Of a stretch of DNA of 64,000 nt, positions 1-64,000 are shown one piece after another; positions within the stretch are counted from its first letter, which is position 1, and every line of letters begins with the position of its first letter. The stretch is taken from contig OZ024740.1 of NCBI GenBank assembly GCA_964016885.1, forward strand, positions 37,138,001 through 37,202,000. Direction: 5' to 3'. The notes under the pieces were generated by a model. It had not been told where the DNA came from. It saw nothing but the letters and a program-made list of their open reading frames with translations, and did no database searches. The DNA is from Eledone cirrhosa (taxonomy: Eukaryota). Position numbers and translations under genes: made by a program.

Positions 1-3000
1 AAGAAAAAAGAAAAAACAAACAACAAAACCAAAGCAGCACAGCAACAACAGCAAAAACGAGAAAAACAAACAGAGAAAAACAAAAACAAAAAAAGAAACC
101 CCCAAAACGTAAAGAAAATAAGAATGAAGAGAGAAGCAGGCGGACGGACAGAGAAGAGGGGGGAAAAAGTAAAACTTAAAAAACAAAAACTAAGTCAGAC
201 ATTCGAATACTACATTACAATGAAACTTATGCTTATTCATTTTCGGGGCCCTTTCTGCCCGTGTGTTTGTTTGTTTATGTGTGTTCGTATACAGCGTGGT
301 GATAATGCCACACAAGGGCCAAGTGGGATGGCGGATCCACAGATGGCTATGTAAACATACATTCGCCAATCCTCGATAAGAGTGTTTAAATATCGAACAT
401 AAACAGTTCGAATAACGGTGAAATGGAGACTAGAACGTCATGTGACAGACTCTCACCCAACAGGTGCCCCCTGGCTCAGCAGCAGGAACCTGACTGTCAA
501 CCAAATACTGCTGATGTTGGAGGAAGAAGAAAAAGGAAAGGGGCCAGAACCAACTGGACGAAAGAATTGAATAGAACTGTTATGCAATGCTACCTGAAAA
601 GTAACCCCAAGGAGAGGGGCTACAGGAGACGGATGCATAACATCTGGAACGAGATTGGTTTATTTAAATTAGATGAACAAAAATTGGCCGGGCAGGCTTG
701 GGTAATAAGAACTAATGGGTGGATAAGCGAGCTGGAACTGGAGGAACTGAGCAGAGAGAATGGCTTGGAGATGGCGGGTGTAGTATGCCAGACAAGCGAG
801 CCGGTGGGAAATGAAGGTGAGGAGGTCCTGAGAACGGAGGAACCACCCGAAGCAGACAATGATCTGAATACTGAGATAAATAATACCTGGAACAGAGATA
901 CGGCCACTGAGGAGATGAATGCTGACGGGCTAGGACAAGATTCGGTTGACATCCTAAATTTAGTGGTAGATGAATTGAACAATGATAGTGGGAGACCTAT
1001 GAACCTAAGATTTGTAGACAGGAAAAAGTTAAAAGAAACAACAGCTAAGGTAAACAAAGTCATCCCATACCTTGAGGCGAGGAGCCTTCACCAGTGCAAC
1101 AATATCCTCAAAGCAACAGCAAATACGGTGAGGAAACTACTTGGTATAAAAGCGAGAGGAAACAACAGACAAGAAAGAGCAGAGCCGTGGTGGAAGAAGC
1201 GACTGAGTGGGCAAATCGGGGAAATGAGAAATGACATAGGAAAGCTTGAGTCACTACTGAATGGGACACTAAAAAACATAGGCACTAAAAATAGACTGGA
1301 AATAAAATACAAAACTAGGAGTAAAAAGCTAAATATTATCATAGAGGAATTGAAGCAACGCATTGTAGCAAAGAGTGCCAAAATCAGGCGATACGAGAAC
1401 AGAGTCAGTCAGTATAAACAGAACCGCATGTTCGACAACAACCAGAAGATGCTGTTTGGACAGCTTGAGGGGAAAGAAAGAGGCAACGACTTGATCCCTG
1501 GGGCGGAACAAACTAAAACATTCTGGAGAGGAATATGGGAGCAGGATGTTAGACACAATGCCCAGGCAGGGTGGATTGAGACAGTACAGAGGGAGATCGG
1601 TGAGCAGGCACAACAACAGACTGATTTGAGTATCACAGTTGAAACTCTTAAGGGGCAAGCCAAAATACTAACCAACTGGAAATCACCAGGCCCAGATGGT
1701 GTGCAGAGGTATTGGCTTAAACATTTAACATCCCTCCACCCGAAGCTGACGGCCATGTTCAATGACTGCTTGGTGTCGGGTGAGGTGCCAGAGTGGTTGA
1801 CAAAAGGTACCACAGTTCTGATAATGAAAGACCGAATCAAGGGTAATGATGTTACCAACTATAGACCTATCACATGTCTGCCCGTAATGTGGAAACTGTT
1901 GACGAGCATTGTGTCTGAGGAAATCTACCATCACCTCCACACAAACAACTTGTTACCGGACGAACAGAAAGGATGCCGAAAGAAGTCACGTGGTACAAAG
2001 GACCAGTTGCTTATTGATAAGATGGTAATGGGGAATTGCAGGAGGAGACACACTGATCTTGCCATGGGATGGATAGACTACAGAAAGGCATTTGACATGG
2101 TGCCTCATTCTTGGATCACCAAAAGCCTGGAGATCTTCAGGGTGGCAGATAGCATCAGACAGTTGCTGGGCAGGAGTATGGGGTCCTGGGAGACAGAGTT
2201 GACATCAACTGGAGTATCCTTGGGAAGCGTGAAGATCAAGAGAGGTATCTTCCAGGGAGATAGCCTGTCCCCTCTGTTGTTTGTCCTTGCCCTGATGCCC
2301 TTGACCATTATGCTGCGAAAAGTGAGAGCAGGATACAAGTTGGGAAGGGGAGAGCTTACCATCAATCACCTCCTCTTCATGGACGATCTTAAGCTCTTCG
2401 GGAAAAGTGAGAAGGAGTTGGATGTGCTTGTTGACACTGTCCGTATTTTCAGCAGTGATATATGTATGCAGTTTGGTATTGGTAAATGTGGAGTCATTGT
2501 GATGAAGAGGGGTAGGTTGAGCAGAAGTAACGGGATCCAGATACCAACAGGTGAGATGATAAGGGAAATTGACTCTGAGGAAGGATACAAGTATTTGGGC
2601 GTTCTGGAGGCTGATGGCATAAAGAACAAAAAAATGAAGGAATTGTTAAGAACTGAATACATTCGGAGAGTAAGGAGCGTATTGAAGTCACATCTGAACA
2701 GCAGAAATGCCATAAGCGCAGTAAATTCCCGAGCTGTGTCTATTATTAGGTACAGTGCGGGAATTCTGAGATGGAATGTTGCTGAACACAAAGAAATGGA
2801 TAGGAAGACTAGGAAGCTATTGACTATCTACAACATGTTCCACAAGAGGAGTGATGTCGATAGACTCTACCTAAGGAGATCTGAGGGTGGAAGAGGTCTT
2901 ATCAGCATAGAGGACTGTGTTCAGATGGAGAAAAACAACCTATACAAATACGTGACCTATAGTAAGGAGCCAATGCTCAGAACTGTACTGAAGGAGGGGA

Positions 3001-3888
3001 CAGTAGGCCAGGGGATGTCCAAGGAGGAAATAACATCAAGGAGGAAGAGCAGCCTTAAGGGAAAATCCCTTCATAGTACCTTCTTTGAGAAAACTGAATT
3101 TAGAGATCCACAGACATGGAACTGGTTGAGAAGAGGAGACCTCAAAAAGGCTACAGAAGGAATGCTAATGGCTGCGCAGGAGCAGGCCCTCAAAACGAAG
3201 TGGTTGAAGCACCATATCTACAAGGAGGAGGCTAGCCCACTGTGCAGGATCTGTGGAGAGAGAGAGGAGACTGTGGCTCACATTGTGTCCGAGTGTAAAC
3301 ACCTAGCCCAGACCCACTATAAGGGCTGGAGACACGATGTGATGGGCAGGGTGATCCACTGGCAGCTGTGCAAAGTAAACAATCTACCACATTCTGAGAA
3401 ATGGTATGAGCATAGGCCAGAGGTGGTGATGGAGAACAGTCAGGTGAAGGTGCTGTGGGATTTTAGGATACAGACGGACAAAAAACTGGAACACAATAGA
3501 CCTGACCTGGTGGTTGTGGACAAAGAAAAAAGATCGTGCCTGATTGTGGATGTGGCCTGCCCGTTCGACACGAGAGTGCAAGAGAAGGAGAGGGAGAAAA
3601 TTAACCGATACCAGGACCTAAAGTGGGAGGTGAAAAGGATTTGGAACTGCCATGAAGTCAAAGTGATCCCGATTGTCATAGGCGCACTGGGGACTATCTC
3701 CAAAGGTTTCCAGGGATGGTTAAAGAAAATCGGCCCCTTCACGCTTTTTGGAACGCTTCAAAAGGCATGCTTGCTTGGAACAGCAAGAACCCTCCGATAC
3801 GTCCTGAATATCTGAGGCTGCAGGTAGTGGCTTGATATTCAATCCAACGGACTTTCCAGTTAACCAACATCAATGACTGAGATTCAAG

Positions 3889-3889
<1 letters not shown>
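1..3889 (+). mobile_element. R4/Dong-clade RLE non-LTR retrotransposon, family A copy A1 (5' end outside window)
   Basis: 5' region homologous to copies at 15793 and 39545; intact ORF; short 3'UTR ending CAATGACTGAGATTCAAGG directly before (AAT)24. Confidence 0.93.
423..3815 (+). CDS. Intact 1130-aa RT / CCHC zinc finger / PD-(D/E)xK restriction-like endonuclease protein
   Basis: [44 protein letters not shown] (RT); CRICGEREETVAHIVSEC (CX2CX8HX4C); RHD; NRPDLVVVD...VDVACP...EKINRY (RLE). Confidence 0.95.
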   Translation: METRTSCDRLSPNRCPLAQQQEPDCQPNTADVGGRRKRKGARTNWTKELNRTVMQCYLKSNPKERGYRRRMHNIWNEIGLFKLDEQKLAGQAWVIRTNGWISELELEELSRENGLEMAGVVCQTSEPVGNEGEEVLRTEEPPEADNDLNTEINNTWNRDTATEEMNADGLGQDSVDILNLVVDELNNDSGRPMNLRFVDRKKLKETTAKVNKVIPYLEARSLHQCNNILKATANTVRKLLGIKARGNNRQERAEPWWKKRLSGQIGEMRNDIGKLESLLNGTLKNIGTKNRLEIKYKTRSKKLNIIIEELKQRIVAKSAKIRRYENRVSQYKQNRMFDNNQKMLFGQLEGKERGNDLIPGAEQTKTFWRGIWEQDVRHNAQAGWIETVQREIGEQAQQQTDLSITVETLKGQAKILTNWKSPGPDGVQRYWLKHLTSLHPKLTAMFNDCLVSGEVPEWLTKGTTVLIMKDRIKGNDVTNYRPITCLPVMWKLLTSIVSEEIYHHLHTNNLLPDEQKGCRKKSRGTKDQLLIDKMVMGNCRRRHTDLAMGWIDYRKAFDMVPHSWITKSLEIFRVADSIRQLLGRSMGSWETELTSTGVSLGSVKIKRGIFQGDSLSPLLFVLALMPLTIMLRKVRAGYKLGRGELTINHLLFMDDLKLFGKSEKELDVLVDTVRIFSSDICMQFGIGKCGVIVMKRGRLSRSNGIQIPTGEMIREIDSEEGYKYLGVLEADGIKNKKMKELLRTEYIRRVRSVLKSHLNSRNAISAVNSRAVSIIRYSAGILRWNVAEHKEMDRKTRKLLTIYNMFHKRSDVDRLYLRRSEGGRGLISIEDCVQMEKNNLYKYVTYSKEPMLRTVLKEGTVGQGMSKEEITSRRKSSLKGKSLHSTFFEKTEFRDPQTWNWLRRGDLKKATEGMLMAAQEQALKTKWLKHHIYKEEASPLCRICGEREETVAHIVSECKHLAQTHYKGWRHDVMGRVIHWQLCKVNNLPHSEKWYEHRPEVVMENSQVKVLWDFRIQTDKKLEHNRPDLVVVDKEKRSCLIVDVACPFDTRVQEKEREKINRYQDLKWEVKRIWNCHEVKVIPIVIGALGTISKGFQGWLKKIGPFTLFGTLQKACLLGTARTLRYVLNI

Positions 3890-3961
<72 letters not shown>
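3890..3961. repeat. (AAT)24 microsatellite between A1 tail and SINE tail
   Basis: Direct read. Confidence 0.98.
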
Positions 3962-4262
3962 TGTTTCTACTTTTTGGCACAAGGCTAGCAATTACCAGCG
4001 CATTACTGGTACTTTATTTTATCGACCCTGTAAGGATGAAAGGCAAAGTTAACCTCGGCGGGATTTGAACTCTCTGTGTCAAAGCATGGCGTCCGACCTT
4101 CTACCGATACTGCCAATCCACCGCCATAACTGGTACTTTATTGTATCGACCTCGTAAGGATGAAAGGCAAAGTTAACCTCGGCAGGATTTGAACTCAGAT
4201 CATAAAGGGCCATAACTCTATGCTGCAAAGCATGGTGCCCGACCCTCTACCGATACTGCCAA
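3962..4262 (-). mobile_element. Two tandem tRNA-derived SINE copies (3962-4125 internally deleted; about 4128-4262 lacking its 3' tail)
   Basis: Minus strand A box TGGCAGTATCGG, B box GAGTTCAAATCC, core GCCTTTCATCCTTAC.GGGTCGAT (Deu/Nin-like from memory), tail GTAGAAACA(ATT)n; homologous to 8881 and 15542. Confidence 0.88.
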
Positions 4263-5920: not shown

Positions 5921-5951
5921 TTGTAAACCCTTTGTTGTCAATAAAGAAAAC
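5921..5951 (+). mobile_element. Tx1 3'-terminal stub in + orientation
   Basis: TGTAAACCCTTTGTTGTCAATAAAGAAAAC-ATTATT resembles the Tx1-B terminus TGTAAACCCTTGTGGTTAATAAAGAAAAC-ATTATT. Confidence 0.65.
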
Positions 5952-6349: not shown

Positions 6350-6817
6350 AACAAAGGCTTCATCAGTTTGGATCCTTGTATAAGGAGTGAAAGGAGAATG
6401 CTTGCAAAATATTTGATAAACAGTGAAGAAGAGATATTGGTATAAATGCAGTAGAAATAGTTAGAAAGGAAGGGTTTAACCAAAGAGCAGAAGAGAAAAG
6501 AAAAGAAGATCTAGGGATGAGAATGTATGGTCAGTTTAAGAGAAATACACATGATATCAAGGATAAAACAACATCATGGACATGGCTTAAGCAAGGTGAT
6601 TTGAAACGTGCCACTGAAAGCCTTATAGTTGCAGCGCAAGACCAAGCTTTTGATACAATTCGGTGAAATATAACATCTATAAAACTTCTGACACCCAGAA
6701 ATTCAGGTCTGTAGAATGAATGTGGAAAATTTGGCCCACTTGGTAAGTGGGTAGGAGAGCCTTGTGCAAAAAGAATTCAAGCGCCGCCATGATAAAGTCT
6801 GTCTATAACTTCATTGG
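6350..6817 (+). pseudogene. Fragment of a third R4/Dong-like family (E), linker to zinc-finger region
   Basis: Manual translation gives MYGQF...SWTWLKQGDLKRATESLIVAAQDQA...KRRHDKV, homologous to A (WLRRGDLKKATEGMLMAAQEQA) but distinct in DNA. Confidence 0.8.
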
Positions 6818-8777
6818 CATTCTTAAAAAGCAGGCCAATAAACTAACCAACTCGACATCACCATGCCCAGATGATATGCAAGGATATTGGATAAAAAATA
6901 TAACATCCCTCCACCCAAAACTGACAGCCATGTTCAATAACTGCTTGGTGTCGGGTGAAGTACCAGAGTGGTTGACAAAAGGTACCACAATTCTGGTAAT
7001 GAAAGACCGAATCAAGGGTAATGAAGTTACCAACTATAGGCCTATCACATATCTATCTGTAATGAGGAAACTGTTAACAAGTATTTTGTCTGAGGAAATA
7101 TTCTATCACCTCCACATAAACTTATTGCTGGTCGAACAGTAAGGATGCCGAAAGAAGTCCCGTGCTACAAAAGACCAGGTACTTATTAATAAGTTGGTAA
7201 TAAGGAATTGCAAGAGGAAACATACTGGTCTTGCCATGGTATGGATAGACTACAAGAGAGCATTCGACATGGCTCCTCATTCTTGGATAATAGAAAACCT
7301 AGAGATCTTAAATGTGGCAGACAACATCAGACAGCTATTAATTAATAGTAGGAAGTCCTGGGAGACAGCTAACATCAGGTGGAGAATCATTGGGCGAGTG
7401 AAGATCAAGAGAGGTATCTTCCAAGGAGATAGTTTGTCCCCTTTATTGTTTGTCCTTACCCTCATACCCTTGTCCCTCATATTGTGAAAAATGAAAGCAT
7501 GATACAAGCTGGGAAGAGGAGAGCTTATCCTCAACCACTTCCTCTTCGTGGACGATCTAAAACTCTTTGGGAAAAGCGAGGAGTTGGATGTATTTGTTAA
7601 CACTGTCTGTATTTTCAGCAATGATATATGTATGGAATTTGGTGTTAATAAGTGTGGAGTCCTAGTAATGAAGAGGGGTAAATTGAACAGAAGCAACGGA
7701 ATCCAGGTACCAACAGGTTAGATGATAAAGGAAATCGACACCGAAGAGGGATACAAATATTTGGGTATTCTGGAGGTAGATGACATCAAGAACAATAAAA
7801 TGAAGGAATTGATAAGATCAGAATACATAAGGAGAATAAGGAACATACTAAAATCAGATCTAAATAGTAGGAATGTCATAAGTCCAGTAAATTCCCGAAA
7901 TGTGTCTATTATTAGGTGCAGTGTGGGAATTCTGAAATGGAATGTTACTGAACAAAAACAAATGGATAGACTCTACTTAAGGAGACCTGAAGGTGGAAGA
8001 GGTTTTATCATCATAGAGGACTGTGTTCAGATGGAGAAAATCAGTCTGCACAAATATGTGTCTGAGAGTAGGGAGCCAATGCTCAAAGTTGTACTGAAGG
8101 AGAAGACAATAGAGTAGGGGATGTCAAAGGAGGATGTAACAACAAAGAAGAAGAGCAACCTAAATGAAAAATCCCTTCATAGCACCTTCATTAAGAAAAC
8201 TGAATTCAGAGATCCACAGATATGGAACTGGTTAAAAAGAGGAGACTTTTAAAAAGCTACAGAAGGAATGCTAATGGATGCACAAGAGCAAGCCCTCAGA
8301 ACGAAGTGGGTGAAATACCATACTGACAAGGAGGAGGCTAGCTCACTGTGTAGGATCTGTGGAGAGAGAGAGGAGACTGTGACTCACATTGTATCCGAAT
8401 GTAAAAACCTAGCCCAGACTCACTATAAAGGCTGGAGGCATGATATAATAGGAAAGGTGATTCACTGGTATGAGCATAAGCCAGAGTCGGTAATAGAAAA
8501 CGATGAAGTGAAGGTGCTATGGGATTTCAGGATACAGACAGACAAGAAATTAGAACACAATGGGCCTGACCTGGTGGTTTTTGACAAGGTAAAAAAATTG
8601 TGCCTGATTGTAGATGTAGCCTGCCCCTTTGATACAAGAGTGCAAGCAAAGGAGGAGAAAATTAACCGATACCAGGATTTAAAGTGTGAATTTAAAACGG
8701 ATTTGGGACTGTCATGAGATCATCCCGATTATCATAGGAACACTGGGTATTATAACATCAATGACTGAGACTCCAAG
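6818..8777 (+). mobile_element. Family A copy A2, 5'-truncated and decayed
   Basis: ORF pieces 6747-7142, 7194-7487, 7722-8117, 8268-8717 align to A1; ends CATCAATGACTGAGACTCCAAG-AAAATAAT. Confidence 0.92.
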
Positions 8778-8786
8778 AAAATAATA

Positions 8787-9499
8787 TAAACTATAATAAA
8801 GGAAGGTCTGCGGGACTGCGTACGGTTTATTATTTTTTATCCCGTTAGTAAAATAAGTTGGATTACTTTGAATAAATAATTGTTTCTACTTTAAGCACAG
8901 TGCATTACTGGTACTTTATTTTATCGACCCCGTAAGGATGAAAGGCAAAGTCAACCTCGGCGGGATTTGAACTCAGATCGTAAAGGGACGTAACTATGCT
9001 GGAAAGCATGGCGTCCGACCCTCTGCCGATACTGCCAATCCACTGCCAATCCACTTTGAATAAATAATGAATGAATATTACATAATTTATCTACTAAATT
9101 TCGTAGACAAAAATAATTTCGTAAAAATAAATAATTTAAAATTTACTTCTTTTCAAAGTTGCACTTCCGGAATCGTTGCCACCACCACCTCAACTACCAT
9201 ATATATTGAAAAAGAGAGAGTGTATTGTCAACACTTCCGGTGGCGATCATTTAAATAAACATACTAATTTTCTCCTAATGCGGTTTATATATAATATCGT
9301 CTTTTTTTAATGTATCATAGATTACGTTAGTAATTACATCAGACAGTGTAGCAACGTCTTCGTTCAATTTCTGTTTATATTGTCAATTACGATTTTATTT
9401 GATGTATCATATCTACATGTATATATACTTGCGTATAATATCAAAATAAACACTACACATGCTAGCAGAAAACCACCCGAACGGTGGTTCTTCTGCTAG
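8787..9499 (+). mobile_element. Possible non-autonomous Helitron (3' end clear, 5' end uncertain)
   Basis: Hairpin AACCACC-CGAAC-GGTGGTT, 6-nt spacer, CTAG|T at 9496-9500; left boundary is a guess. Confidence 0.45.
8881..9052 (-). mobile_element. tRNA-derived SINE with 16-bp TSD
   Basis: A/B boxes as above; ACTTTGAATAAATAAT at 8865-8880 and 9053-9068. Confidence 0.92.
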
Positions 9500-9765
9500 T
9501 AATAATAATAATAATAATGCTTTCTTTATTAACCACAAGTGTTTACATAAAGTAGACATTAAGGACAGTACAGGACAATACAGGACGGTACAAATGGACA
9601 TTTCTGCGTGTAAAACAAAACAGAGGATGTAATAAAAATTAACAATGAAAAATTCCCCAATAGGGGGGAGACTTCCGAGGGACATTTGTGGAGAAAGCCT
9701 ATTAAAAAGCCACAGTGACCCTGACAACCAGGGCAAGTGCCCTCTCCCAGTTTTCCACCTTTAAT

Positions 9766-12700: not shown

Positions 12701-13172
12701 TATCCGCTAATCCCACACAGTCCCAGCGTGCATCTAAGATCCCGTTCCAGTCGCCCACTAACACTAAAGAGCGGGACGTTCCAAGAAAGGTCTCCAGACG
12801 CCGGAAGAAATCAGGCCGCCCTGCTCCTGTCGGGGCATAGACGGCCACTAGCCTGAAAGCTTGCCCGTCTCCGCTGGTCACGTCCAGCACCACCAGCTTA
12901 CCCTCTGGGTCCAGGAAGATGGCCCGTATGGCGAGATCCAAACCTCTCCGAAAAAGCACAGCAACTCCTCCACCCGATCCAGGACGGCTGGGAGATGCGT
13001 ACACATCGTAGCCGCCGAAGATCGGTGCGAAGGCCCGTGCTTCGGAGATTCTGGTCTCGCTGATGGCCACTACATCTATGTTTAGTGACCTGAGGTCGTT
13101 GAGCAGGTGACCCTGCTTCCATGACGACCCCAAGCCACGCGCATTTATGCTGCCTATTCTGAGTGAGGTCAT
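9766..13172 (-). pseudogene. T1 ORF2, APE-RT-CCHC, two nonsense codons and a small C-terminal deletion
   Basis: SINARG, AISET, GDWN, YLDR, TDH (APE); SPGLDG, RPITLLN, QGCPLS, YADD (RT); CPRCAQGDETVLHALVQC; in-frame stops at 11031 and 9936 relative to T5. Confidence 0.93.
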
Positions 13173-13207
13173 GTTTAAAATAGGGTGGAAAAGATGGGAA
13201 AGACCAC

Positions 13208-15720: not shown

Positions 15721-15736
15721 TAATAAAACTAATAAT

Positions 15737-15776
15737 GATTTCTTTATTGGCCACAAGGGCTGACATGAAGAAAAAC
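15737..15776 (-). mobile_element. 40-bp 3' stub of Tx1 subtype C
   Basis: GATTTCTTTATTGGCCACAAGGGCTGACATGAAGAAAAAC near-identical to 50621-50660. Confidence 0.88.
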
Positions 15777-49265: not shown

Positions 49266-49281
49266 AATAATAATAATAATA

Positions 49282-49502
49282 ATAAAGTCTATGACAAAAC
49301 CATTAATCACTTGTTCTACATGGATGACCTGAAACTATTTGCAAAAAATGATGAACTATTGCAAGGGCTATTATCCACTGTGGAGCAGTTCAGTGATGAC
49401 ATTAAAATGGAGTTTGGACTAGATAAATGCGCCAAAGCAACGTTCACCAGAGGAAAGCTGCTGAAGAGTTCAGACATTAATCCTGATCGGGGGAACGTGA
49501 TA
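49282..49502 (+). mobile_element. Family D copy D4, 220-bp RT fragment
   Basis: KTINHLFYMDDLKLFAKND...RGNVI matches D1 31030-31245; starts in (AAT)6. Confidence 0.92.
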
Positions 49503-50593
49503 GGAGGGCACCAACACCATTTCCTCGCTCCTTAGGGTCACTAAGGATTGAGCCTTTGCCTCCTGGGGTGTGGCAAAAAGCACGTCCACGGTGGCATATT
49601 TCTTGCCTCGGGTGATATGCGTTTTCAGCTGCAACACAGACTTTAAGGCTTTTTGTATTTGAGCCTCTGTGGCTCTTTCAACCCTACGGGAGTTTGTGCT
49701 TACTGTACGGTACGTGACCGAACAGTGCTGTTGGGTTTCGAAAAATTGTTCGGCTGCCTTTCAGATTGCTCGGTGTCCGGTTTTCGTCACCATCTTTGCT
49801 TCCTGTAATTCCTCATTTGTTATAAGGATGGTTTCCAGGTTCTTTGCAATATCTGCAAACGAGATTGGTTTTTCTTTGTTGTTGTTGTTGTTGTTGTTGC
49901 TTCTGCTGGTACTACGCCTGCCGCCGCCGCTGTTGCTATGGTTGTTGTTGTTGCTGCTGCTGCTGCTTGTGTTGTTGTTGCTGTTGCTGCTAATGCTGTT
50001 GGTGTTTATGCTGCTGCCGGTGCTGTTGCTGCTGCTACTGTTGTTTTCCTTGTCATTGCTGCTGTTATTACGGCTGCTACTGGTATTATTCATGACGTCA
50101 GACGAATGAAATGGGTTTCCGTATTTACCGCACACATGTTTCGTCGTTGTCATCGTCGTGGAGAAATGTTCCACGTTTTGCACGTGCTCTTGGAAACTAT
50201 CAGAAACTATATTTTTCTTTTTCTTTACTGGCGTCGCTTGCGAAAGAGAAGGGAGGGGGAGAGACACATTTAGAGAAGGGAGATAGAGAGACAACCTTCT
50301 CTCTGGTGTAGTGACGATTGAGGAAGAAGAAGACGGAATGAGTGGGAGTGACTTGTGAAAATTCTTTTTTGTAGCCATGTTTTTTTTTGGTTTAAAATAA
50401 ATATTGGGCACAAAACCCCAATAAGCGGTTATTTAACCCCGAAGGGCCAAACAACGGGCAGAAAGACTCCTCTCACGAGGAGGAGGGTGTTTTTGTCTAC
50501 AATTTTGTTAAAGTTTTAAACAATTTACAATTGTTATAGCGGTTAAAATTTACTATAACTTACAGAGCCGAGCCTCCGTCAACCATGGCATTC
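49501..50593 (-). mobile_element. Tx1 copy T3, 5'UTR + first part of a type I-variant ORF1 (ATG 50378)
   Basis: Same 5' end GAATGCCATGGTTGACGG as T1; MATKKNFHKSLPLIP; 3' portion missing. Confidence 0.9.
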
Positions 50594-50915
50594 AATAATA
50601 ATAATAATAATAATAATAATGATTTCTTTATTGGCCACAAGGGCTGACATCAAGAAAAACATTACAGACGGTACAGGACGGTACGATGTGGGTTTTGTGC
50701 GTGTAAATATTTTTATTATTTATATAAGAAAAAAAAGGACATAGAAACATATATATATATATATATAAACAATAAAAATGAAAATTGAAACAATGAAAAA
50801 TTCCCCAATAGGGGGGAAACCTCCGAGGGTTACCCGTGGCGAAAACCACACAAAAGACCACGGCCACCCTGACCACCAGGGCAAGCGCCCTCTCTCAATT
50901 TTTCCATCTCTCAAA

Positions 50916-53900: not shown

Positions 53901-54307
53901 TACCGTTCCAGTCGCCCACTAACACTAAAGAGCGGGACGTTCCAAGAAAGGTCTCTAGACGTCTGAAGAAATCTGGCCGTCCTGCCCCTGTTGGGGCGTA
54001 GACGTCTACTAGCCTGAAAGTATTTGCCTTCGCTGCCGGTCACGTCCAGCACCACCGACTTACCTTCTGGGTCTAGGAAGATGGCCCGTATCGCGAGATC
54101 CAAGCCTCTCCGAAAAAGGACAGCAACATCTCCCCCCGATCCTGGACGGCTGGGAGGTGCGTATACATCGTAGCCGCCGAAGATCGGTGCGAAGGCTTGT
54201 GCTTCGGAGGTTCTGTTTAATGACCTGAGGTCGTTGAGCAGGTGACCCTGCTTCCAAGATGACCCCAGGCCACGTGCATTTATACTGCCTATTCTGAGTA
54301 CGGCCAT
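50916..54307 (-). pseudogene. T4 ORF2, APE-RT with multiple frameshifts and deletions
   Basis: MAVLRIGSINARG start; fragments 53861, 53671, 53174, 53004, 52823, 51228, 51052, 50916. Confidence 0.9.
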
Positions 54308-54339
54308 GTTGGACGAGAAGCGGGGCAAATGAGAAAGGG

Positions 54340-56436
54340 TCACTTACCTTGTTCGTGTGGTGAAGGGACAGTAGAACCGTCCCTTTCGCTGGTCATGGGT
54401 GATTCCAAGAGGATGTCAGTGTATATCCTCTTGGTAACCAACCCTCTGAAGTCTCCAACTGCGTTGGGGGATTTTTGTTTTAAAGGTTTGTACTGTTCTA
54501 TTGAGATTTCGATGATGCTTATGTTTGTCGGGAGAGTTCTTGGTCTTGGTGGGGTGTAGTAGTTTTTTTCTGTGATGTCTGTGTGCTGCTTTATATATTG
54601 TATGGGTTCTTTTTTTGCCATGTTTATGGCTGTGTACTTTTTGGGGGGAGGGGGGATTTTGTTGCCGTTTTCTTCTTGTTGCTGTTTGGTGTGTGTGTCT
54701 TGTTGTGTTTGCGTTGTTGGTGTTTTTGGTGATGCTGGTGGTGGTGGTGTGGTTGTTGTTGTCAGTGGTGCTTGTGGTGGTGATGGTGGTGGTGTTGCTG
54801 CAAGTTTCCTTGCTGCCTTTACCCCTCTTTGTATGCCTTCGCTTTTGGAGGGTGAATCTAAGGGTTTTTTTCTTTTTTCTTTTTTGTGGCTGACCGTTTG
54901 CCACTTCACTCCCGCCTCAAACTCCATGTCGGATTCTGTGGCGTCTTGGAGGGGTATGTGCTCCACGGCTGTTGGTGGTGGTAGTGGAGCCCTCTTCGGC
55001 AATTTTGTTCCTGGTGTAGCTACTTCGAATGTAGCTATTGGTGTTGCCGCCACTGATGATGCTGCTTTAATTGTCCGTGGTCTTGGTACGGGTGCTACAG
55101 ACGTTGCCCTCCTACTCACCGTGGGAGGGGCTTCTTCGTTTGTTGCCTGCCCTGCTCTTGGTAGCAGCGGACCAGGTATTGGAAGGAGAGGGGCCTTCTT
55201 CGCTGTCTTCTGCGGGCAAAAGGCGCTGAGGTGACCCTTCGACCCACAGAGATAACATTTTGGCCGTCTTCCTTCTACACTTATAGGGAGTTGGAGTCCT
55301 TCCTCGATGTCTATGATATCGGGGATAGCCTCGATACATTCCTGGTCAGTTTGTATAAGCATTTGCATGCCTATACCTGACCAGTTCTCTCTCCCTATTT
55401 TTACTACTTGCAGCATGGTCGTCCTGTTCTCGATTTCAGCAAGGACAGACGCGGCCAGCCAAGGTATGGGCACGTCGGGTGGGATCTGGGTTACTTTGAG
55501 CCTCACAATTTTCTGCCCGCAGTAGGAGGGCACCAAGACTAACTCCTCACTCTTTAGGGTTTCCAAAGAGTGAGACTTTGCTTCCTGGGGGGTGGCGAAA
55601 AGTACGTCTACTGTGGCGTACTTTCTGCCTCGGGTGATGTGGGTTTTGCGTGCCCAGACGCACCCCAAGGCCTTTTGGATTTGAGCGTCCGTGGCTCTCT
55701 CCACTCGATATGAGATTTTGCTTACGGTGCTGTAAGTCACCGTTCGTAGCTGCTGGTCCTTGAAAAAATCGGGTGGAGGTTTCAGGGAGACTCTATTTGC
55801 GCGTCTTGTCACCATAGCCCTTGCGACTGCCATCTCCTCCTCTGTGACTAACACTGTCTCGATATTTCGGGCGACACCTGGAAAAGAAGTGGTCCCTTTT
55901 TCAGCAGCACAACTATTGCTGCCGTTATTGGTCTTACTGATGGTGCTGAGGTCGCTATTACAGATATCGGTGTCATTGTCGTTCTTTTCGTTGGAACAGT
56001 TGTTGGTGTTGTTGTTGTTTTCGTTGATAGTGTTGCTGTTGTTACTGTTATTGTGGTTGTTGTTATTATTGTTGTTTTTGTTGATACTGTTCCTACTATT
56101 ATTGTTGTTGTGGCTGTTGTTATTGTCATTGTTATTGTCGTTCTCGACCTTACCGCTGTTATTTTTGTTATTGTCGTCCTCGACTTTACCGCTGTTATTT
56201 TTGTTGTTGCTGGTGTTATTGATGGTGTTGTTGTTGGTGTTGTTGGTGGTGTTATTGTTGGTGTTGTTTGTGTTAGAAATATTTGTTAATTTTAAATCTG
56301 TAACAATCTTCTTTTCCTTTGTAATATTTTCGTTTATATTTATCTCCGCTGGAACGCTGTCTTGTTGACATGCTGATAAAGTCTCCCTCTCTCTGTGTTG
56401 TCTGACAGCGCTCTCTCTGTTTCTTGTGTTATCCAT
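54340..56436 (-). CDS. T4 ORF1, intact 698 aa from MDNTRN
   Basis: Poly-Asn N-terminus, KTHITRGRKYATVDVLF block, knuckle CYLCGSKGHLSAFC, Pro/Thr tail; first ATG of the 54340-56484 frame is at 56436. Confidence 0.88.
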   Translation of the reverse strand: MDNTRNRESAVRQHRERETLSACQQDSVPAEININENITKEKKIVTDLKLTNISNTNNTNNNTTNNTNNNTINNTSNNKNNSGKVEDDNNKNNSGKVENDNNNDNNNSHNNNNSRNSINKNNNNNNNHNNSNNSNTINENNNNTNNCSNEKNDNDTDICNSDLSTISKTNNGSNSCAAEKGTTSFPGVARNIETVLVTEEEMAVARAMVTRRANRVSLKPPPDFFKDQQLRTVTYSTVSKISYRVERATDAQIQKALGCVWARKTHITRGRKYATVDVLFATPQEAKSHSLETLKSEELVLVPSYCGQKIVRLKVTQIPPDVPIPWLAASVLAEIENRTTMLQVVKIGRENWSGIGMQMLIQTDQECIEAIPDIIDIEEGLQLPISVEGRRPKCYLCGSKGHLSAFCPQKTAKKAPLLPIPGPLLPRAGQATNEEAPPTVSRRATSVAPVPRPRTIKAASSVAATPIATFEVATPGTKLPKRAPLPPPTAVEHIPLQDATESDMEFEAGVKWQTVSHKKEKRKKPLDSPSKSEGIQRGVKAARKLAATPPPSPPQAPLTTTTTPPPPASPKTPTTQTQQDTHTKQQQEENGNKIPPPPKKYTAINMAKKEPIQYIKQHTDITEKNYYTPPRPRTLPTNISIIEISIEQYKPLKQKSPNAVGDFRGLVTKRIYTDILLESPMTSERDGSTVPSPHEQGK

Positions 56437-56652
56437 GTTGAAATTTTTCAAGAAGATATTTTTACACAAATACGAATACGGCACCCCGTATAGGGGTGCC
56501 GTATTATTTACGAGTGAACCCCTGTATTAGGTGGGTCACTTCTTTTAAACTTTTATCAAATTTAAAACTTGAATAAAAGGTTTAGAACGGTTGAAAACGA
56601 GGTAAAACGTTGAAAAAAAACTAGAGGCGATAAGAAGCGTGGCTTCACCAAC

Positions 56653-56713
<61 letters not shown>

Positions 56714-56956
56714 TTTTCTTTATTAACCACAAGGGTTTACATAAAGTAGACATTAAGGACAGTACAGGACAATACAGGACGGTACAAATGGGCATTTCTG
56801 CGCGTAAAAAAACAGAGGTTGAAATAAAATAACAAAGGAAAATTCCCCAATAGGGGGGGAGACTTCCGAGGGACATTTGTGGTGAAAGCCCATTAAAAGA
56901 CCACAGTGGCCCTGACCACCAGGGCAAGTGCCCTCTCCCAGTTTTCCACCTTTAAT

Positions 56957-59900
56957 TTACAGACACATACTCAGAGAAGGCCCATTCATTCGGGCCATAC
57001 TTGCTTCTCTCACCCATCTTTCAACAAAATGCTGGGAAGAGAGCATTTCCCTCTCTACCCTGATTTTCCTTTTCAAATGAAATTTGAAAAAGGTAATCAG
57101 GGCATCACCGAAGAGGTAAGTGCTCGTCTTCAGCCCTTTCAAACGTGTCCACCATACTATCTCTTTCGCCATGGCCACCAGACAGATAAAAACTGCCTGC
57201 CCTTCCCTGCTAAAGGAAGGGGGCGGGGCAATCCTCACGATGGACTCAGCTGATAGCCGGATCCGTCCTACACGTGACAGCAGGTGTTCGACATAAACCC
57301 ACAAGTCAGCAATGCTCGGACACTGGACGAGTGCGTGCAGGACGGTTTCGTCGCCCTGCGCGCATCTCGGACATGCCCGGCTGACGGCACCTCCATGCCT
57401 GTAGAGTTTATCCCGAACTGGCAAGGCTCCTCGGTAGCACTGCCAGGCCAGAGATTTCTGGAAGTTGTCCATAGGCCCCGGCCCGAAAGTTCTTCCGAAG
57501 AGATTGGCTAGTTGATTTTCGTCGACGCCTAGAGTTTCTCCAAGTACGTCGTCGCTCTTCCCCTCCACTAATCCCCTATAGAACGCCAAGGTGGAGTTTC
57601 CACCGATCACATTGCCCGATTGGTCGAGGGCTGTGAGCGCCTGAAGACATTCCAGTCTCCAAGCGCTCCCTCTCGGTCTTCGCTTGACCCAGGACTGCAG
57701 CTCCGTCAAGGAGACGAGCTGGGGAAAAACGTGTCTAACAAACGGCGACCACACCTGATCACCGTCGAGGAAGAGGTGGAGATGTCGTAGCCTGAGCGCG
57801 TGCCTGCGCATCATCTGCCATGGCATGCCCAGCCCTCCACGTAGCGGGTGTTGACAGCAGATCGACCGCCTGACCATCGGAGCGCGTCCCTTCCACAAGA
57901 AGCGAAAGAGCAAACGCTCCAGCGCAGTCAGGCGGGGCTTAGGACAAGGTACGACGGTCAGGCGGTAGTAGATGACGGATGTGATGTACGCATTCGCCAC
58001 CTCCGCTCGACCTTTCAGGGAGAGCTTCCTCTCGGCCAATTTCTGGGTGAGAGAAGCCACCCTGCTCGTCACCTCGTCCCAGTTTTTGTCCGTCTGGAGG
58101 TCTGGACCGAACCAGACCCCTAGCAATTTAACCGGTCCGTCCGTCCAGCGCCCGACGACGCTGTTGGACGGCATGGACCTGCCTCTCCAGGTGCCGAGCT
58201 GCAGGCCCACTGACTTTTCCTGGTTGATCATTGCTCCTGTCACCGCTTCGTATTCTCTTAGTGTAGTGCCGATCGCCTCGATGTGTTTGGCGTTCGACAC
58301 CACTACGGTGACATCGTCGGCATATGCTGACACGGATCTTCCGCATCCTAGTTCGCGCGGGACCCCCCTCAACGTCTCCAGTTTGTGCAGTAATGCCTCG
58401 AGAGTCAATACGTACAATAGGGACGAGAGGGGACATCCTTGGCGGACCGAGCGCATGATGTTGAACGGTTCCGAAAGGTGACCGTTCACTCTCACTACAG
58501 AGCAGATGTCGCTGTGCATGGCAGCGATCCAGCCTCTGAAGACGGGCCCAAAGCCAGCCGCCCTCAGGACTGCCGCTAGGTAACGATGGTCGACCCTATC
58601 GAAGGCTTTCGACTGATCTAAATTGATCAAAGACCCACCCGTGCCAGGTTCCTTAGCTACCCTCTCTACGATGTATCGCATGAGGTGGAGGTTGTCGTGG
58701 ATGGATCTGTCGGGAATGGCGCATGTCTGTGCCTCTCCCACCAGACCACCAACGACAAGCGCCAACCTCTTTGCTAGCACCTTGGCCAAAATCTTGAACT
58801 CTGTGTTTAGCAGAGTTATGGGCCTAAAATTATCTATGTTATCCCCCTTGTTCGGATCCTTTCTCAGCAGCGCCACCGCTCCTCGGCTCACAGAGCTGGG
58901 AATTCTCCCGTTCTGTTGCCAGTTGCAGTAGACGTCCGCCAAGAGGGCTCCGAACAAGTTTGGCATTTGTACGTAAAGTTCATAGGGCAGACCATCAAAA
59001 CCAGGCGATTTACCCCTTGTGCAACTAGTCATTGCATCCCGTACTTCAGCGGTTGTTATCGGCTTTTCGCAACACTCCGCCTCTGTGGCCGAAAGCCGCG
59101 GCAGTCCGTCGAGGTAGACACTAAAGTCCATCCCTCGATCCGGCCCGCCACTGCCCCCGAACAGTTGAGCGAAGTGTCGCTGAAAAGCTTCACACATTTG
59201 CCCGGGATCGAGTAGCATGCGCCCGTCGTGGTCCACCAAAGACCAGATCGTGGCTTTGTTGCCACGACGCGCCTCCGCCACTCGGGCCCGTTGAACGGCT
59301 TTCGTCCCCTCGTGTCTGAGAGCACGCACCCTAGCTCTGACAACGCAGCCTTCGTGCTTTGCATTGAAGAATTGGTCAAGGGCCAATTTCGCCGCAAGTA
59401 CGTCGGTCGCGATGCCTTTACTAAGCGCCTCATCTAATTTTCTAACTAATTCTCCCTCTGCTCTATTTTTCTCTATTGCTAAAGTCTTACTAAACCTAAT
59501 GGACTCTATTCTAATTGCTCTTTTCAGAGCAAACCACCACTTGTTGTTGACGATGGCCCCCGTCAACGCCCACTTAACTAGTTCGCTAATACGGTCTCTG
59601 TAAGCCTTGCGCGCTGGTAAGGACGCGTTCAGCTTCCAGTAGCCGGGTACTCGTCTATGAAGCCTATCTAAGTCAAGCACACAGATCACGAATTTGTGGT
59701 CCGTGTAGCTGACTATCTTGAATTGTGGACAGCCTATGCTAGACCTATCTATTTCCCTACAAAATACTCTATCTAGATATGATCTGGATGACCCTATGCG
59801 ATTTGTCCAAGTCCACATTGGTACATTCGGGAAATCCATTCGGTACCTGTCAGACAGTTCAAAACGTCTGAGCAGGTTGGTGAGACTCTTGCACCCTCCT

Positions 59901-60376
59901 TCCCTATCCACTAATCCCACACAATCCCAGCGTGCATCTAAGATCCCGTTCCAGTCGCCCACTAACACTAAAGAGCGGGACGTTCCAAGAAAGGTCTCCA
60001 GACGCTGGAAGAAATCAGGCCGCCCTGCTCCTGTCGGGGCATAGACGGCCACTAACCTGAAAGCTTGCCCGTCTCCGCTGGTCACGTCCAGCACCACCAA
60101 CTTATCTTCTGGGTCCAGGAAGATGGCCCGTATGGCAAGATCCAAACCTCTCCGAAAAAGCACAGCAACTCCTCCCCCCGATCCCGGACGGCTGGGAGAT
60201 GCGTACACATCGTAGCCGCCGAAGATCGGTGCGAAAGCCTGTGCTTCGGAGATTCTGGTCTCGCTGATGGCCACTACATCTATGTTTAGTGACCTGAGGT
60301 CGTTGAGCAGGTGGCCCTGCTTCCATGACGACCCCAAGCCACGCGCATTTATGCTGCCTATTCTGAGTGAGGTCAT
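56957..60376 (-). CDS. T5 ORF2, intact 1139-aa APE endonuclease / RT / CCHC protein
   Basis: All APE and RT motifs listed for T1, uninterrupted. Confidence 0.95.
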   Translation of the reverse strand: MTSLRIGSINARGLGSSWKQGHLLNDLRSLNIDVVAISETRISEAQAFAPIFGGYDVYASPSRPGSGGGVAVLFRRGLDLAIRAIFLDPEDKLVVLDVTSGDGQAFRLVAVYAPTGAGRPDFFQRLETFLGTSRSLVLVGDWNGILDARWDCVGLVDREGGCKSLTNLLRRFELSDRYRMDFPNVPMWTWTNRIGSSRSYLDRVFCREIDRSSIGCPQFKIVSYTDHKFVICVLDLDRLHRRVPGYWKLNASLPARKAYRDRISELVKWALTGAIVNNKWWFALKRAIRIESIRFSKTLAIEKNRAEGELVRKLDEALSKGIATDVLAAKLALDQFFNAKHEGCVVRARVRALRHEGTKAVQRARVAEARRGNKATIWSLVDHDGRMLLDPGQMCEAFQRHFAQLFGGSGGPDRGMDFSVYLDGLPRLSATEAECCEKPITTAEVRDAMTSCTRGKSPGFDGLPYELYVQMPNLFGALLADVYCNWQQNGRIPSSVSRGAVALLRKDPNKGDNIDNFRPITLLNTEFKILAKVLAKRLALVVGGLVGEAQTCAIPDRSIHDNLHLMRYIVERVAKEPGTGGSLINLDQSKAFDRVDHRYLAAVLRAAGFGPVFRGWIAAMHSDICSVVRVNGHLSEPFNIMRSVRQGCPLSSLLYVLTLEALLHKLETLRGVPRELGCGRSVSAYADDVTVVVSNAKHIEAIGTTLREYEAVTGAMINQEKSVGLQLGTWRGRSMPSNSVVGRWTDGPVKLLGVWFGPDLQTDKNWDEVTSRVASLTQKLAERKLSLKGRAEVANAYITSVIYYRLTVVPCPKPRLTALERLLFRFLWKGRAPMVRRSICCQHPLRGGLGMPWQMMRRHALRLRHLHLFLDGDQVWSPFVRHVFPQLVSLTELQSWVKRRPRGSAWRLECLQALTALDQSGNVIGGNSTLAFYRGLVEGKSDDVLGETLGVDENQLANLFGRTFGPGPMDNFQKSLAWQCYRGALPVRDKLYRHGGAVSRACPRCAQGDETVLHALVQCPSIADLWVYVEHLLSRVGRIRLSAESIVRIAPPPSFSREGQAVFICLVAMAKEIVWWTRLKGLKTSTYLFGDALITFFKFHLKRKIRVEREMLSSQHFVERWVREASMARMNGPSLSMCL

Positions 60377-60410
60377 GTTGAAAAGGAGTGGAAAAGATGG
60401 GAAAGACCAC

Positions 60411-62409
60411 TTACCTTACTTCTCGTACGGGAATGACGGTTTTTCCATCCTTTTCACTGCTTGTGGCCTCCTCAGGAAGGATGTCCTTATAAATCCTCCT
60501 GGAGAGTGCTTGTCGGAAGTCTCCGATGTCTTTGGGGAATTTTTGTTTTAGTGTCATGTACGTTTTCTGTGTGATGCGAGTGATTTGTATGTGTTGAGGT
60601 GGTGTGAATTTTGGGGTTGTTGTGTAGTCTTTTTCTGTGATGCTGGTGTTGTGTTGGATGTAGTGTAATAATTGCTTGTTGTTCAAATTTAATGCTGTGT
60701 AGTGTGTAGTGTGTATCGTTTTGGTTGTTTTGTTTTGTTTACGTTTGTTGTGGGTTTGTTTCTGTTTCGCATTTTGGTGACTTTTGTGGTGTAGGTGATG
60801 GTGGTGTTGGGGTTAATGATGGTGATGGTGTTGGTGTTTGGGTTGATGGGGTTGGTGATGCTGGTGTGGATGGTGGCATATCTATCCTAACTTTTTTGTT
60901 TCTTAATTTATTTGTTTCCCTCTGTATTTTGTTTTGGAGGGGGAAGGAAGAGAATTTTTTTCTTTTTTGGTTTCTTTTTTTTTTCCGGATATCGTTTCCC
61001 ACTCCTCGTCGTCACAATCTGTCTCCAGTTGTGATAGGCCGGGGAGTGGAAAATCCTCCACAGCCGTTAGTTTTGGTTGTGGCGTGGTGGATGGTGTAGG
61101 CGCTGGTGCTAGTTCTGAAGCGTTGGGTGGTGGTGGTGTTGGTTTTGGTGGTGGTGGTGGTGGTGTTGGTTTTGCTACTGTTGCTGGGGTTGTTGCTGTT
61201 ATAGTTGCTTCTGTTGTTGCTGCTACAGTTGTTGCTTCCATCTCTGCTACTGGTGGTGTTGATGGTTGTGTCACTGGGGTGGGTAGGAGAGGTGGCTTCA
61301 ACCTTTTAGCCTGAGGGCAGAAAGCCCTTAGGTGGGTTCCTTCACCACAAACGACACACCTAGGTCTTCTGCCCTCGACAATTACCGTGAGGTGGCTGCC
61401 GTCAGTGAGGTCTATTACCTCTGGGATCTCCTCAATGCTTTTTTGGTCCGCTTGGATCAGGAGCTCCATCCCAGATCCGGATCAGTTCTCCTGCTTTTCT
61501 TTTGCTATTGCTATTATTTTCGTGTTGGCTTCGATGCCGGCGAGGACGGCCGCTATTAGCCAGGGAATTTCGATGGCCGGGTGAACGTGGGTCACCCTGA
61601 TCTTTACGAGTCTCTGGCCACAATAGCTTGGGACGAGTGTGAAGTCGTCACTTCTTAATGGGGCTATGGAGTGTTCTCTAGCCTCCTCTGGTGTTTCAAA
61701 GAACACGTCCATGGTTCCATACTTTTGCCCACGTCTGATGTGGGTTTTTCTTGCCCACACATGTCCCAAAGCTTTTTGGATTTGGGACTCGGATGCCCGT
61801 TCCACTCGGCGCGATTTTACATTTATTGTTCTATACGACACGGTGCATAGGCGCCGATGCTCCATATTATTAGGTGGGGGGGGGGCTGACCCTGTACCCA
61901 TCTTTCTTTACCATTTGTTTGGCATTTTCTAAATCCTCCTGAGCTACCCTAAATGCTTCGAACTGTTTTGCTACTCTGGCGAAACTGAGGGTCGGTTTTA
62001 TAATGTCATTGTTGTTGTTGTTGCTATCGTTATTTGTGTTAATATTAAATTTAGTTTCAGTTGTGGTGGTGGTGACGTCAGTCGTCTTTGGTGAGGAAGA
62101 GTTCATTTTGCTTGATTTCATTTCGACATCACGAGTTAATTTATTTTTTTCTTCTTTTGTTTCTGTTGTCGCGGTGGTGGTGGGGGTGGTGGTTGTCGCG
62201 GTGGTGGTGGTGGTGGAGGCTTTAACACCTGCAGTCATTGGTAATGGCGGGAAATGAATGTCTGCCTGAGACAAATTTAAAATATTGCTACTGCTTATAT
62301 TTTTTTTTGTGTTGGCAAACGTAGTAACATTTACAATGGTGGTGTCGGTGTGAGGTGTTAATTTGTGAGGAAGGCTTTCAGCTGCTTGTTGCAGAGGTGA
62401 ATTAGCCAT
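60411..62409 (-). pseudogene. T5 ORF1 type III, disrupted
   Basis: MANSPLQQ start; KTHIRRGQKYGTMDVFF; knuckle CVVCGEGTHLRAFC; breaks at G run ~61880, TGA at 61482, T run ~60978 and near 60740. Confidence 0.85.
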
Positions 62410-62616
62410 TTTTTTCAATGAAATTTTTTGATAATAATAAAAGTTTAAATTTTGGGCACAAGGCCCCAATCTTTTTGGGTGTCCTTTTCGGAAAACAATG
62501 TATGTGCGCTTATAAACAGTTAACAATAAAATTATCCATAAATGACAATTTTTAACAAACGGAAATAACAAACCTTTGCGGAGCTCACGATGATACGATT
62601 TTCTACGTAGGTCGCC

Positions 62617-62673
<57 letters not shown>

Positions 62674-64000
62674 TTCTTTATTAACCACAAGGGTTTACAT
62701 AAAGTAAACATTAAGGACAGTGCAGGACAATACAGGACGGTACAAATGGGCATTTCTGCGTGTAAAAAACAAAAACAGAGGATGTAACAAAAAATAACAA
62801 TGAAAAATTCCGCAATAGGGGGGAGACTTCGGAGGGACATTTGTGGAGAAAGCCCAGTAAAAGGCCACAATGACCCTGACCACCAAGGCAAGTGCCCTCT
62901 CCCAGTTTTCCACCTTTAATTTACAGATATATACTCAGAGTAGGCCCATTCACTCGGGCCATTCTTGCTTCTCTCACCCATCTTTCAACAAAATGCTGGG
63001 AAGAGAGCACTTCCCTCTCTACTCTGATTTTCCTTTTCAAATGAAATTTGAAAAAGTCAATCAGAGCATCACCGAAGAGGTAAGTGCTCGTCTTCAGCCC
63101 TTTCAAACGTGTCCACCATACTATCTCTTTCGCCATGGCCACCAGACAGATAAAAACTGCCTGCCCTTCCCGGCTAAAGGGGGAGGGCGGGGCAATCCTC
63201 ACGATGGACTCAGATGATAGCCGGATCCGTCCTAAACGCGACAGCAGGTGTTCGACATGAACCCACAAGTCAGCAATTTTCGGACACTGGACGAGTGCGT
63301 GCAAGACGGTTTCGTCGCCCTGCGCGCATCTCGGACATGCCCGGCTGACGGCACCTCCATGCCTGTAGAGTTTATCCCGAACTGACAAGGTTCCTCGGTA
63401 GCACTGCCAGGCCAGAGATTTCTGGAAGTTGTCCATAGGCCCTGGCCCGAAAGTTCTTCCGAAGAGATTGGCTAGTTGATTTTCGTCGACGCCTAGAGTT
63501 TCCCCCAGTACGTCGTCGCTCTTCCCCTCCACTAATCCTCTATAGAACGCCGAGGTGGAGTTTCCACCGACCAGATCGCCCAATTGGTCGAGGGCTGTGA
63601 GCGCCTGAAGACATTCCAGTCTCCAGGCGCTCCTTCTCGGTCTTCGCTTGACCCAGGACTGCAGCTCCGTCAAGGAAACGAGCTGGGGAAATACGTGTCT
63701 AGCAAACGGCGACCACACCTGATCACCGTCGAGGAAGAGGTGGAGATGTCGTAGCCTAAGCGCGTGCCTGCGCATCATCAGCCACGGCATGCCCAGCCCT
63801 CCACGTAGCGGGTGTTGACAACAGATGGACCGCCTGATCATCGGAGCGCGTCCCTTCCACAAAAAGCGAAAGAGCAAACGCTCCAGCGCAGTCAAGCGAG
63901 GCTTAGGACAAGGTACGACGGTCAGGCGTTAGCAGATGACAGACGCGATGTACGCGTTAGCCACCTCCGCTCGACCTTTCAGGGGTAGCTTCCTCTCCGC
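62674..64000 (-). mobile_element. Tx1 copy T6, 3' end (continues past window)
   Basis: ORF 62921-63895 matches ORF2 C-terminus; 3'UTR most like T1. Confidence 0.93.

Follow-up and report, generated by a model that had tools for sequence, protein, structure and literature searches.

The telomeric long interspersed nuclear elements (LINEs) TRAS and SART use one repeat, (TTAGG)n, in opposite orientations; both belong to the R1 clade and encode an apurinic-type endonuclease (APE). Parallel specificity for one site is also known for Keno, a Tx1 element with an APE, and Utopia, an element with a restriction-like endonuclease (RLE), which insert into the U2 small nuclear RNA (snRNA) gene with identical 3' flanks, i.e., at the same site and in the same orientation (PMC4640811). 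Dong of B. mori, DongAg and DongBg of the R4 clade have a single open reading frame (ORF) with a reverse transcriptase (RT) and a C-terminal RLE and carry TAA at both ends, and TAA targeting includes the snail Biomphalaria (DongBg; PMC3812793). Among the APE LINEs of the Tx1 clade, Kibi in (TC)n, Koshi in (TTC)n and crocodilian Tx1 elements in (TTCC/TTTC)n occupy microsatellites, and the short interspersed nuclear element (SINE) SINEU was inferred to be mobilised by crocodilian Tx1-Mar from their shared target preference (PMC4494074). The mechanism of microsatellite specificity is "not well understood" according to the review PMC3812793. Among the active LINE groups of O. vulgaris, Dong-R4 ranks first in number (5 families, 1129 insertions; PMC13282606, Table 1), and L1-Tx1 (13 families, 421 insertions) has been recently active like Dong-R4 (PMC13282606). 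Here we describe a 64-kb stretch of Eledone cirrhosa DNA (contig OZ024740.1, 64,000 nucleotides; "the window" below), in which R4/Dong-like RLE LINEs and Tx1-like APE LINEs (Tx copies) lie in opposite orientations on one AAT/ATT microsatellite, together with a SINE family.

Each ingredient of this arrangement has a precedent. RLE/Tx1 convergence on one site (Utopia/Keno at U2, PMC4640811) and Dong elements at TAA in a mollusc (PMC3812793) had both been published, so that the novelty claimed in the original prediction, which was made from the letters of the window, was overstated. The combination nevertheless differs from each of these systems. Whereas Keno and Utopia share a gene target in one orientation, the elements of the window use opposite strands of a microsatellite that is duplicated upon insertion; in contrast to TRAS and SART, an RLE type is opposed to an APE type, apparently at interstitial sites; and the unit is ATT, unlike those of Kibi, Koshi and crocodilian Tx1. 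The RLE elements resemble Dong in their single ORF, RT, C-terminal RLE and TAA at both ends, but belong to two coexisting families. The SINE differs from SINEU in its ATT target and in apparently also sharing a compensatory 3' stem-loop with the LINE. No ATT- or TAA-specific Tx1 family, partner SINE or RLE/Tx pair of this kind was found in the full-text literature searched, which includes few subscription papers and neither Repbase nor Dfam, so that a consensus entry may well exist already.

The feature is real and is better supported than the original prediction could show. We consider it likely, with a probability of about 0.65, that the array was built up by separate insertions, the RLE LINEs reading into (AAT)n and the Tx LINEs and the SINE into (ATT)n with target-site duplications (TSDs) of 12-16 bp, that both types prime on opposite strands of one microsatellite, and that the target is regenerated with each insertion.

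The window is animal DNA dense in non-LTR retrotransposons, which were resolved by self-comparison, Pfam searches and tblastn. As predicted, nine RLE-type pieces were found, all on the + strand: A1-A4, D1-D4 and a decayed piece at 6470-6820. Families A and D each have a single ORF and are about 40% identical in protein. A1 (1-3889), whose 5' end lies outside the window, contains an open frame of 1141 codons (390-3815) encoding an RT, a CCHC finger and an RPD..D nuclease stretch; its CCHC, RHD and RPD..D motifs are intact, and the RLE stretch aligns to R2 proteins. A2 (6821-8779) is decayed and internally deleted, A3 (15794-19423) is 5'-truncated by microhomology after a short imperfect AAT repeat, and A4 (39545-43408) is apparently full-length and frameshifted. 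D2 (33695-37601) is near full-length, with an uncertain 5' end and its 3' end lost at the join to D3. D1 (30810-32751), D3 (37596-39493) and D4 (49286-49509) are 5'-truncated, and the 3' part of D4 is deleted into T3. A single ORF with an RT followed by a CCHC and a PD..D..K-type nuclease, no APE, and sense-strand TAA at both ends (6/6 surviving 3' ends; 4/5 mapped 5' ends, of which that of A3 has an imperfect repeat and that of D3 none, the uncertain A2 and D2 5' ends being left out) are the characters of R4/Dong elements.

On the - strand, eight Tx copies or stubs are present. T1 (9519-15493) is full-length with frameshifts and has repeat on both sides; T2 (43466-49265) is full-length and frameshifted; T3 (49501-50593) retains the 5' part only; T4 (50621-56652) represents a divergent subfamily with its own 5' module; T5 (56713-62616) has a third 5' module; and T6 (62674-64000) is a 3' part that continues beyond the window. 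TxB (15737-15771) is a 35-nt 3' stub, and TxC (19451-19888) is 5'-truncated with a 5' flank lacking ATT. The original prediction listed these eight and overlooked a ninth, a 3' stub on the + strand (5921-5951) followed by ATTATTATGATT, which has the same relation to the repeat. Since this stub is again trailed by ATT, the rule concerns polarity relative to the repeat and not the strand of the window.

The intact ORF2 of T5 (56957-60376; 1139 aa) contains the Pfam domains Exo_endo_phos, RVT_1 and zf-RVT, i.e., the N-terminal APE, RT and C-terminal zinc-binding region of Tx1 elements, and its APE catalytic motifs are intact. Its best match of solved structure is human L1 ORF2p (E 1e-49, versus 1e-19 for R2), and its DQxKAFDRV motif is one that we take to be Tx1-like. 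The ESM Atlas yielded unnamed RT/APE clusters only. ORF1 of T4 (54340-56526) has a CCHC knuckle, CxxCxxxxHxxxxC, as in Tx1 ORF1, which scores 19 bits with Pfam zf-CCHC, just below the cut-off of 20.8. The nearest named relative of the T5 RT is a protein of Argonauta hians (72%), which points to an octopod as the likely host. The Tx copies of the window group with an Argonauta protein and with P0001 (SH-aLRT 99) in a tree that has no labelled Tx1 or L1 references.

All 12 perfect AAT-class runs of at least 18 bp in the window read AAT on the + strand, and all 12 touch an element end. Tail-to-tail joins are formed by (AAT)24 (3890-3961, A1 3' end to SINE 3' end), (AAT)8 (19427-19450, A3/TxC) and AATAGT(AAT)17 (43409-43465, A4/T2), and a head-to-head join by (AAT)6 (49266-49283, T2/D4). 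Head-to-tail joins use (AAT)14 plus imperfect units (39494-39544, D3>A4), (AAT)9 (50594-50620, T4>T3), (AAT)20 (56653-56712, T5>T4) and (AAT)19 (62617-62673, T6>T5). T1 is bordered by (AAT)6 at its 3' end (9501-9518) and (AAT)9 at its 5' end (15494-15520), and (AAT)23 (30739-30807) is located directly 5' of the truncated D1. Thus, joins of all three geometries are intermixed in the window. Joins of 6-24 units had been claimed: the joins named at the time have 6-20, the 24-unit run being the one that connects A1 to a SINE, and two further joins, D2>D3 and D4/T3, are repeat-free rearrangements without AAT. Among the LINE-LINE joins through pure repeat, six units (18 bp) is the minimum, as would be expected with a TSD of 16 bp. 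D1 is followed by (AAT)11, and directly after it by (AAG)52 (32785-32940), which seems to have arisen as a new microsatellite out of the target run.

Neighbouring LINE copies are 75-95% alike and their junction letters differ from copy to copy; the copies of the array were therefore inserted separately. A possible exception is D1/D3; these copies are 98.2% identical with starts 46 nt apart, and one may be a local duplicate of the other. An assembly artefact was ruled out as the main cause, the copies differing by 2-25% and having distinct junction letters. The common polarity across the window (five clusters with AAT on the + strand, two small elements with ATT on it) was not treated as significant.

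Next, we analyzed how the element ends are positioned relative to the repeats. All five full-length Tx 5' ends, which stem from three different 5' modules, read ATT|G, and 8/8 surviving Tx 3' ends run into ATT; the 6/6 surviving RLE 3' ends run into AAT, which in A2 is degenerate. These counts agree with what had been predicted for intact ends. For 19 of the 27 mapped ends, including 8/13 5' ends, an AAT run of at least six units is no more than 12 bp away, against a background of 1.2% of positions; two of the ends were entered with an offset of one base, which is without effect at this distance. The 18 other microsatellite runs (914 bp; 2% of positions) have no mapped end in their vicinity. 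The association has a binomial p of 6e-13, which should be taken as nominal, since some runs serve more than one end and the window was a selected one. The 27 do not include the 5' ends of A1 and T6 (outside the window; for T6, the element continues there), the broken 3' ends of D2, D4 and T3, the uncertain 5' ends of A2 and D2, or the SINE ends. Of the eight ends that missed a run, five abut a short or imperfect repeat (A2 3', A3 5', both ends of TxB, and the 3' end of the + strand stub). Moreover, (AAT)23 immediately precedes the 5'-truncated D1 and (AAT)6 the 5'-truncated D4, and the run upstream of D1 belongs to no LINE tail.

The same AAT/ATT sites are occupied, in the Tx orientation, by a SINE family that is absent from the original prediction. 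It is represented by two partial units in tandem (3962-4262, - strand), whose 3' end runs into ATT and for which no TSD was found, by copies at 8881-9052 and 15542-15720 (both - strand), and by a 3' fragment (30640-30693, + strand) followed by ATTAT. The second and third of these have exact TSDs of 16 bp (8865-8880 = 9053-9068, and 15526-15541 = 15721-15736). The TxB stub, which sits in the TSD of the latter SINE, has a 12-bp TSD with microhomology (15725-15736 = 15772-15783); this TSD and that of the SINE beside it were read from the flanking letters. All three lie in imperfect repeat and begin with ATTATT immediately after the 3' end of the element (element strand). As a chance control, 12-mers drawn at random were compared with randomly chosen 66-nt stretches of the window and found a match in 0.125% of trials. 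The exact TSDs in imperfect repeat therefore demonstrate, locally, that ATT is target DNA and not only a tail. Target-specific insertion with a TSD, a further Tx1 character, is thus seen for Tx within the window, the sole TSD of a Tx copy being the 12 bp of TxB. With a TSD of ~16 bp, each insertion would lengthen the repeat by about five units, in keeping with the predicted supply of fresh target. As to the convergent targeting that had been proposed, a shared target used in opposite orientations is borne out by the TSDs and by D1 and D4 starting after AAT; sequence specificity of both nucleases and mutual dependence are not.

The SINE and Tx 3' ends have in common a CTTGT loop with a short closing stem. 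The stem varies on both sides among the Tx subfamilies, the SINE and a sister clade (see below), and 36/39 cells (92%) pair, 10 of them with double-sided changes (GC/AU, CG/GC); only 1/500 shuffles scored as high, and slid controls paired at 31-59%. A compensatory 3' stem-loop shared by the SINE and Tx LINEs is therein suggested by the sequences. The shared stem-loop, the same polarity and the same TSD start point to mobilisation of the SINE by a Tx-type protein, and a 3' end shared with a LINE together with the same insertion signature is what defines a LINE-partnered SINE. With regard to a SINE head derived from tRNA, 5S or 7SL RNA, ARAGORN detected 0 genes and Rfam gave no match. In all three contig runs compared, the SINE region is by far the deepest bin (window 9440-19582). 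The consensus of the SINE 3' loose ends starts with AATAAT on the + strand (640 contigs in run X1, 447 in X4), which cannot tell tail from target; these loose ends have a median length of 15-17 nt and few reach the repeat. A hairpin-plus-ATT stretch resembling the SINE/Tx 3' end is also present in the 5' untranslated region (5'UTR) of T5 (62436-62460).

The fixed opposite polarity at the repeat and the TSDs beginning with ATTATT are the starting facts for a possible mechanism. Because the TSD starts at the 3' junction, the first nick would be on the strand opposite the element, according to target-primed reverse transcription. The Tx APE would nick the AAT strand, also for the SINE, leaving a primer ...AATAAT-3'OH, and the RLE of A and D would nick the ATT strand. 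The Tx RNA may be recognised through its 3' stem-loop with the CUUGU loop. As AATAAA occurs 3-6 nt from the Tx end and the insertions contain no poly(A), some AUU from read-through is likely present on the RNA and would pair with the primer. A second-strand cut ~16 bp away would duplicate about five units, slippage would stretch the runs to 6-24 units, and later copies of either clade or of the SINE could reuse them, giving rise to all three join geometries. Sharing of the target would then be opportunistic and not obligate.

Several observations weigh against this reading. Four of the seven short elements tested were without a TSD, and none was readable for any RLE copy. Two ATT units were enough for the SINEs and the stub, and specificity may thus be loose. 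Three of the 13 mapped 5' ends (D3, TxC and the + strand stub) lack a repeat of the right polarity, and the 5' repeats of T3, T4 and T5 double as the tail of the neighbour. The shared stem is only 3 bp, was chosen by eye and comes from related sequences. The labels Tx1 and R4/Dong are based on domain order, with a tree that carries no reference sequences, and the evidence is that of one selected window.

The insertions at just two ATT units bring up the possibility, in our view unlikely, that Tx targeting is guided by RNA. A loose, L1-like APE would nick A/T-rich DNA widely, only 3' ends that pair with the AUU of the RNA would be extended, and the convergence would reside in the RNA tails. In line with this, the 3' ends of T6 and TxC are 2-3 nt short, as if primed at internal microhomology, the hairpin loop of T5 aligns gap-free to that of human L1 and is 2-4 residues shorter than in 13/14 sister proteins, and the same idea has been published for RTE elements (PMC6007223). 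However, all five full-length Tx 5' ends lie in runs of at least six units, the Tx1L endonuclease is sequence-specific in vitro (PMC1950540), and (TC)n, (TTC)n and (TTCC)n serve as targets of related Tx1 families (PMC4494074). This explanation and opposite-strand priming on the microsatellite are compatible and not exclusive; much of the Tx specificity could be due to base pairing between the RNA 3' end and the primer.

If AAT/ATT were mere template tails, the array would have to stem from a repeat-rich hotspot in which tails recombined or underwent local duplication. The near-identity of D1 and D3 and the repeat-free joins D2>D3 and D4/T3 would fit such a scenario, which we nonetheless regard as very improbable: tail-tail recombination cannot place 5' ends beside repeats, and the exact TSDs of imperfect repeat, the 23-unit run 5' of D1 without a LINE tail upstream, and junction letters that vary from copy to copy all argue against it.

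Relatives of the window elements were found in contigs of G001, a genome labelled as a bacterial metagenome-assembled genome (uncultured Arenicella in GTDB). Many of these contigs (L056-L093, L096, L101) are tandem arrays of intact animal-type LINEs; they are evidently animal DNA, likely of a misbinned host. A sister Tx clade therein (~41% over ORF2; supported with SH-aLRT 97-99 in a quick 82-row tree) forms head-to-tail arrays with a 16-17-nt non-repeat spacer, which is also present ahead of 5'-truncated copies, and AAT/ATT runs of at least three units were not found in 395,948 nt of sister-clade loci (partly overlapping). Since the sister clade uses a non-microsatellite spacer, ATT use looks lineage-specific, and as the nearest sister clade lacks ATT/AAT runs, the ATT target may be independently derived; the spacer ahead of truncated copies makes a TSD of such size look like a trait of the lineage. 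In the same genome, two 5'-truncated pieces of R4-like elements are immediately preceded by (AAT)6 and (AAT)8 on the sense strand (L103, L107); four loci were examined, of which the other two are uninformative. From these comparisons, tandem stacking and the ~16-bp spacer appear to be old traits of the Tx lineage and TAA use an old trait of the R4 lineage, the meeting of both on one repeat appearing specific to the lineage of the window. Close Tx relatives with flanks were found neither in viral contigs nor, by single-protein search, in metagenomes; an alignment scan yielded 55 loci from metagenomes, mostly distant ones, and AAT/ATT runs of at least four units occurred in none of them.

Part of T5 is present in runs of 17 organisms (20 rows, four of them with at least half of the words); no RNA run is among the rows listed. 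For one of these, organism B (run X4), contig depth is 115,771-1,470,630 over T1 bins versus 27-1,938 over A3 bins at 85% likeness; depth does not equal copy number, and further Dong families may exist there. A deep T1 with almost nothing like A3 argues against an obligate coupling of the Tx and A families. Together with the four Tx copies stacked without an RLE element between them and with the sister clade building arrays alone, this leaves scarcely any room for an obligate mutualism in which each clade depends on the other for its target, for which the intermixed joins of three geometries in the window would speak.

Extending the opposite-strand reading beyond the window, we tentatively propose for octopods, as somewhat less probable than its negation, a three-party system in which a TAA-specific R4/Dong lineage, an independently derived ATT-specific Tx1 lineage and a very abundant partner SINE use one microsatellite from opposite strands. 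With ~16 bp duplicated per insertion, a safe-harbour target would be self-made genome-wide and large mixed LINE arrays would arise, possibly including the reported octopus transposable element hotspots. If true, (ATT)n would be a new target in the Tx1 catalogue, and the pair would be the first RLE and APE LINEs, within the literature searched, to share a microsatellite from opposite strands; an abundant cephalopod SINE would gain a likely partner LINE, and LINE hotspots a mechanism. The intact frames of A1 and of T5 ORF2, together with a sister clade that targets differently, make nuclease specificity versus RNA-primer pairing directly testable.

Some additional features of the elements deserve mention. 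5' modules are exchanged among the Tx copies: although T5 and T1 are 95.5% identical in the 3' 3.7 kb, T5 has a different 5'UTR and a divergent ORF1, and T4 carries a further distinct 5' end (9519-15493 and 43466-62616). Whereas Dong carries a ribozyme like that of hepatitis delta virus (PMC3774820), Rfam, which divergent ribozymes can escape, gave no match at A4 or D2; it returned only microsatellite noise plus one weak hammerhead match. A4 (39555-39585) and D2 (33695-33725) share near their 5' ends a TATA-like motif of 31 nt with five mismatches, a possible conserved promoter. Several nested inverted repeats, spotted by eye and without an Rfam match, are present in the D2 5'UTR (33960-34105).

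At another locus, L095, a 31%-identical APE LINE has a full U1 snRNA gene upstream (3036-3199) and a 3' end that runs into a 5'-truncated U1 copy (9961-10137), and is possibly a U1-targeting LINE; for U1, only Dada-U1 is listed in PMC4640811.

Besides the elements described above, the window contains two or three decayed RT-like frames at 20553-24823, which match RVT_1 weakly, have no AAT run of at least six units nearby and are presumably Penelope-like. Finally, the regions 26708-27341 and 29188-29694 contain a long inverted repeat of ~630 bp, which surrounds an AT-rich core, and a C-terminal fragment of a hAT transposase.

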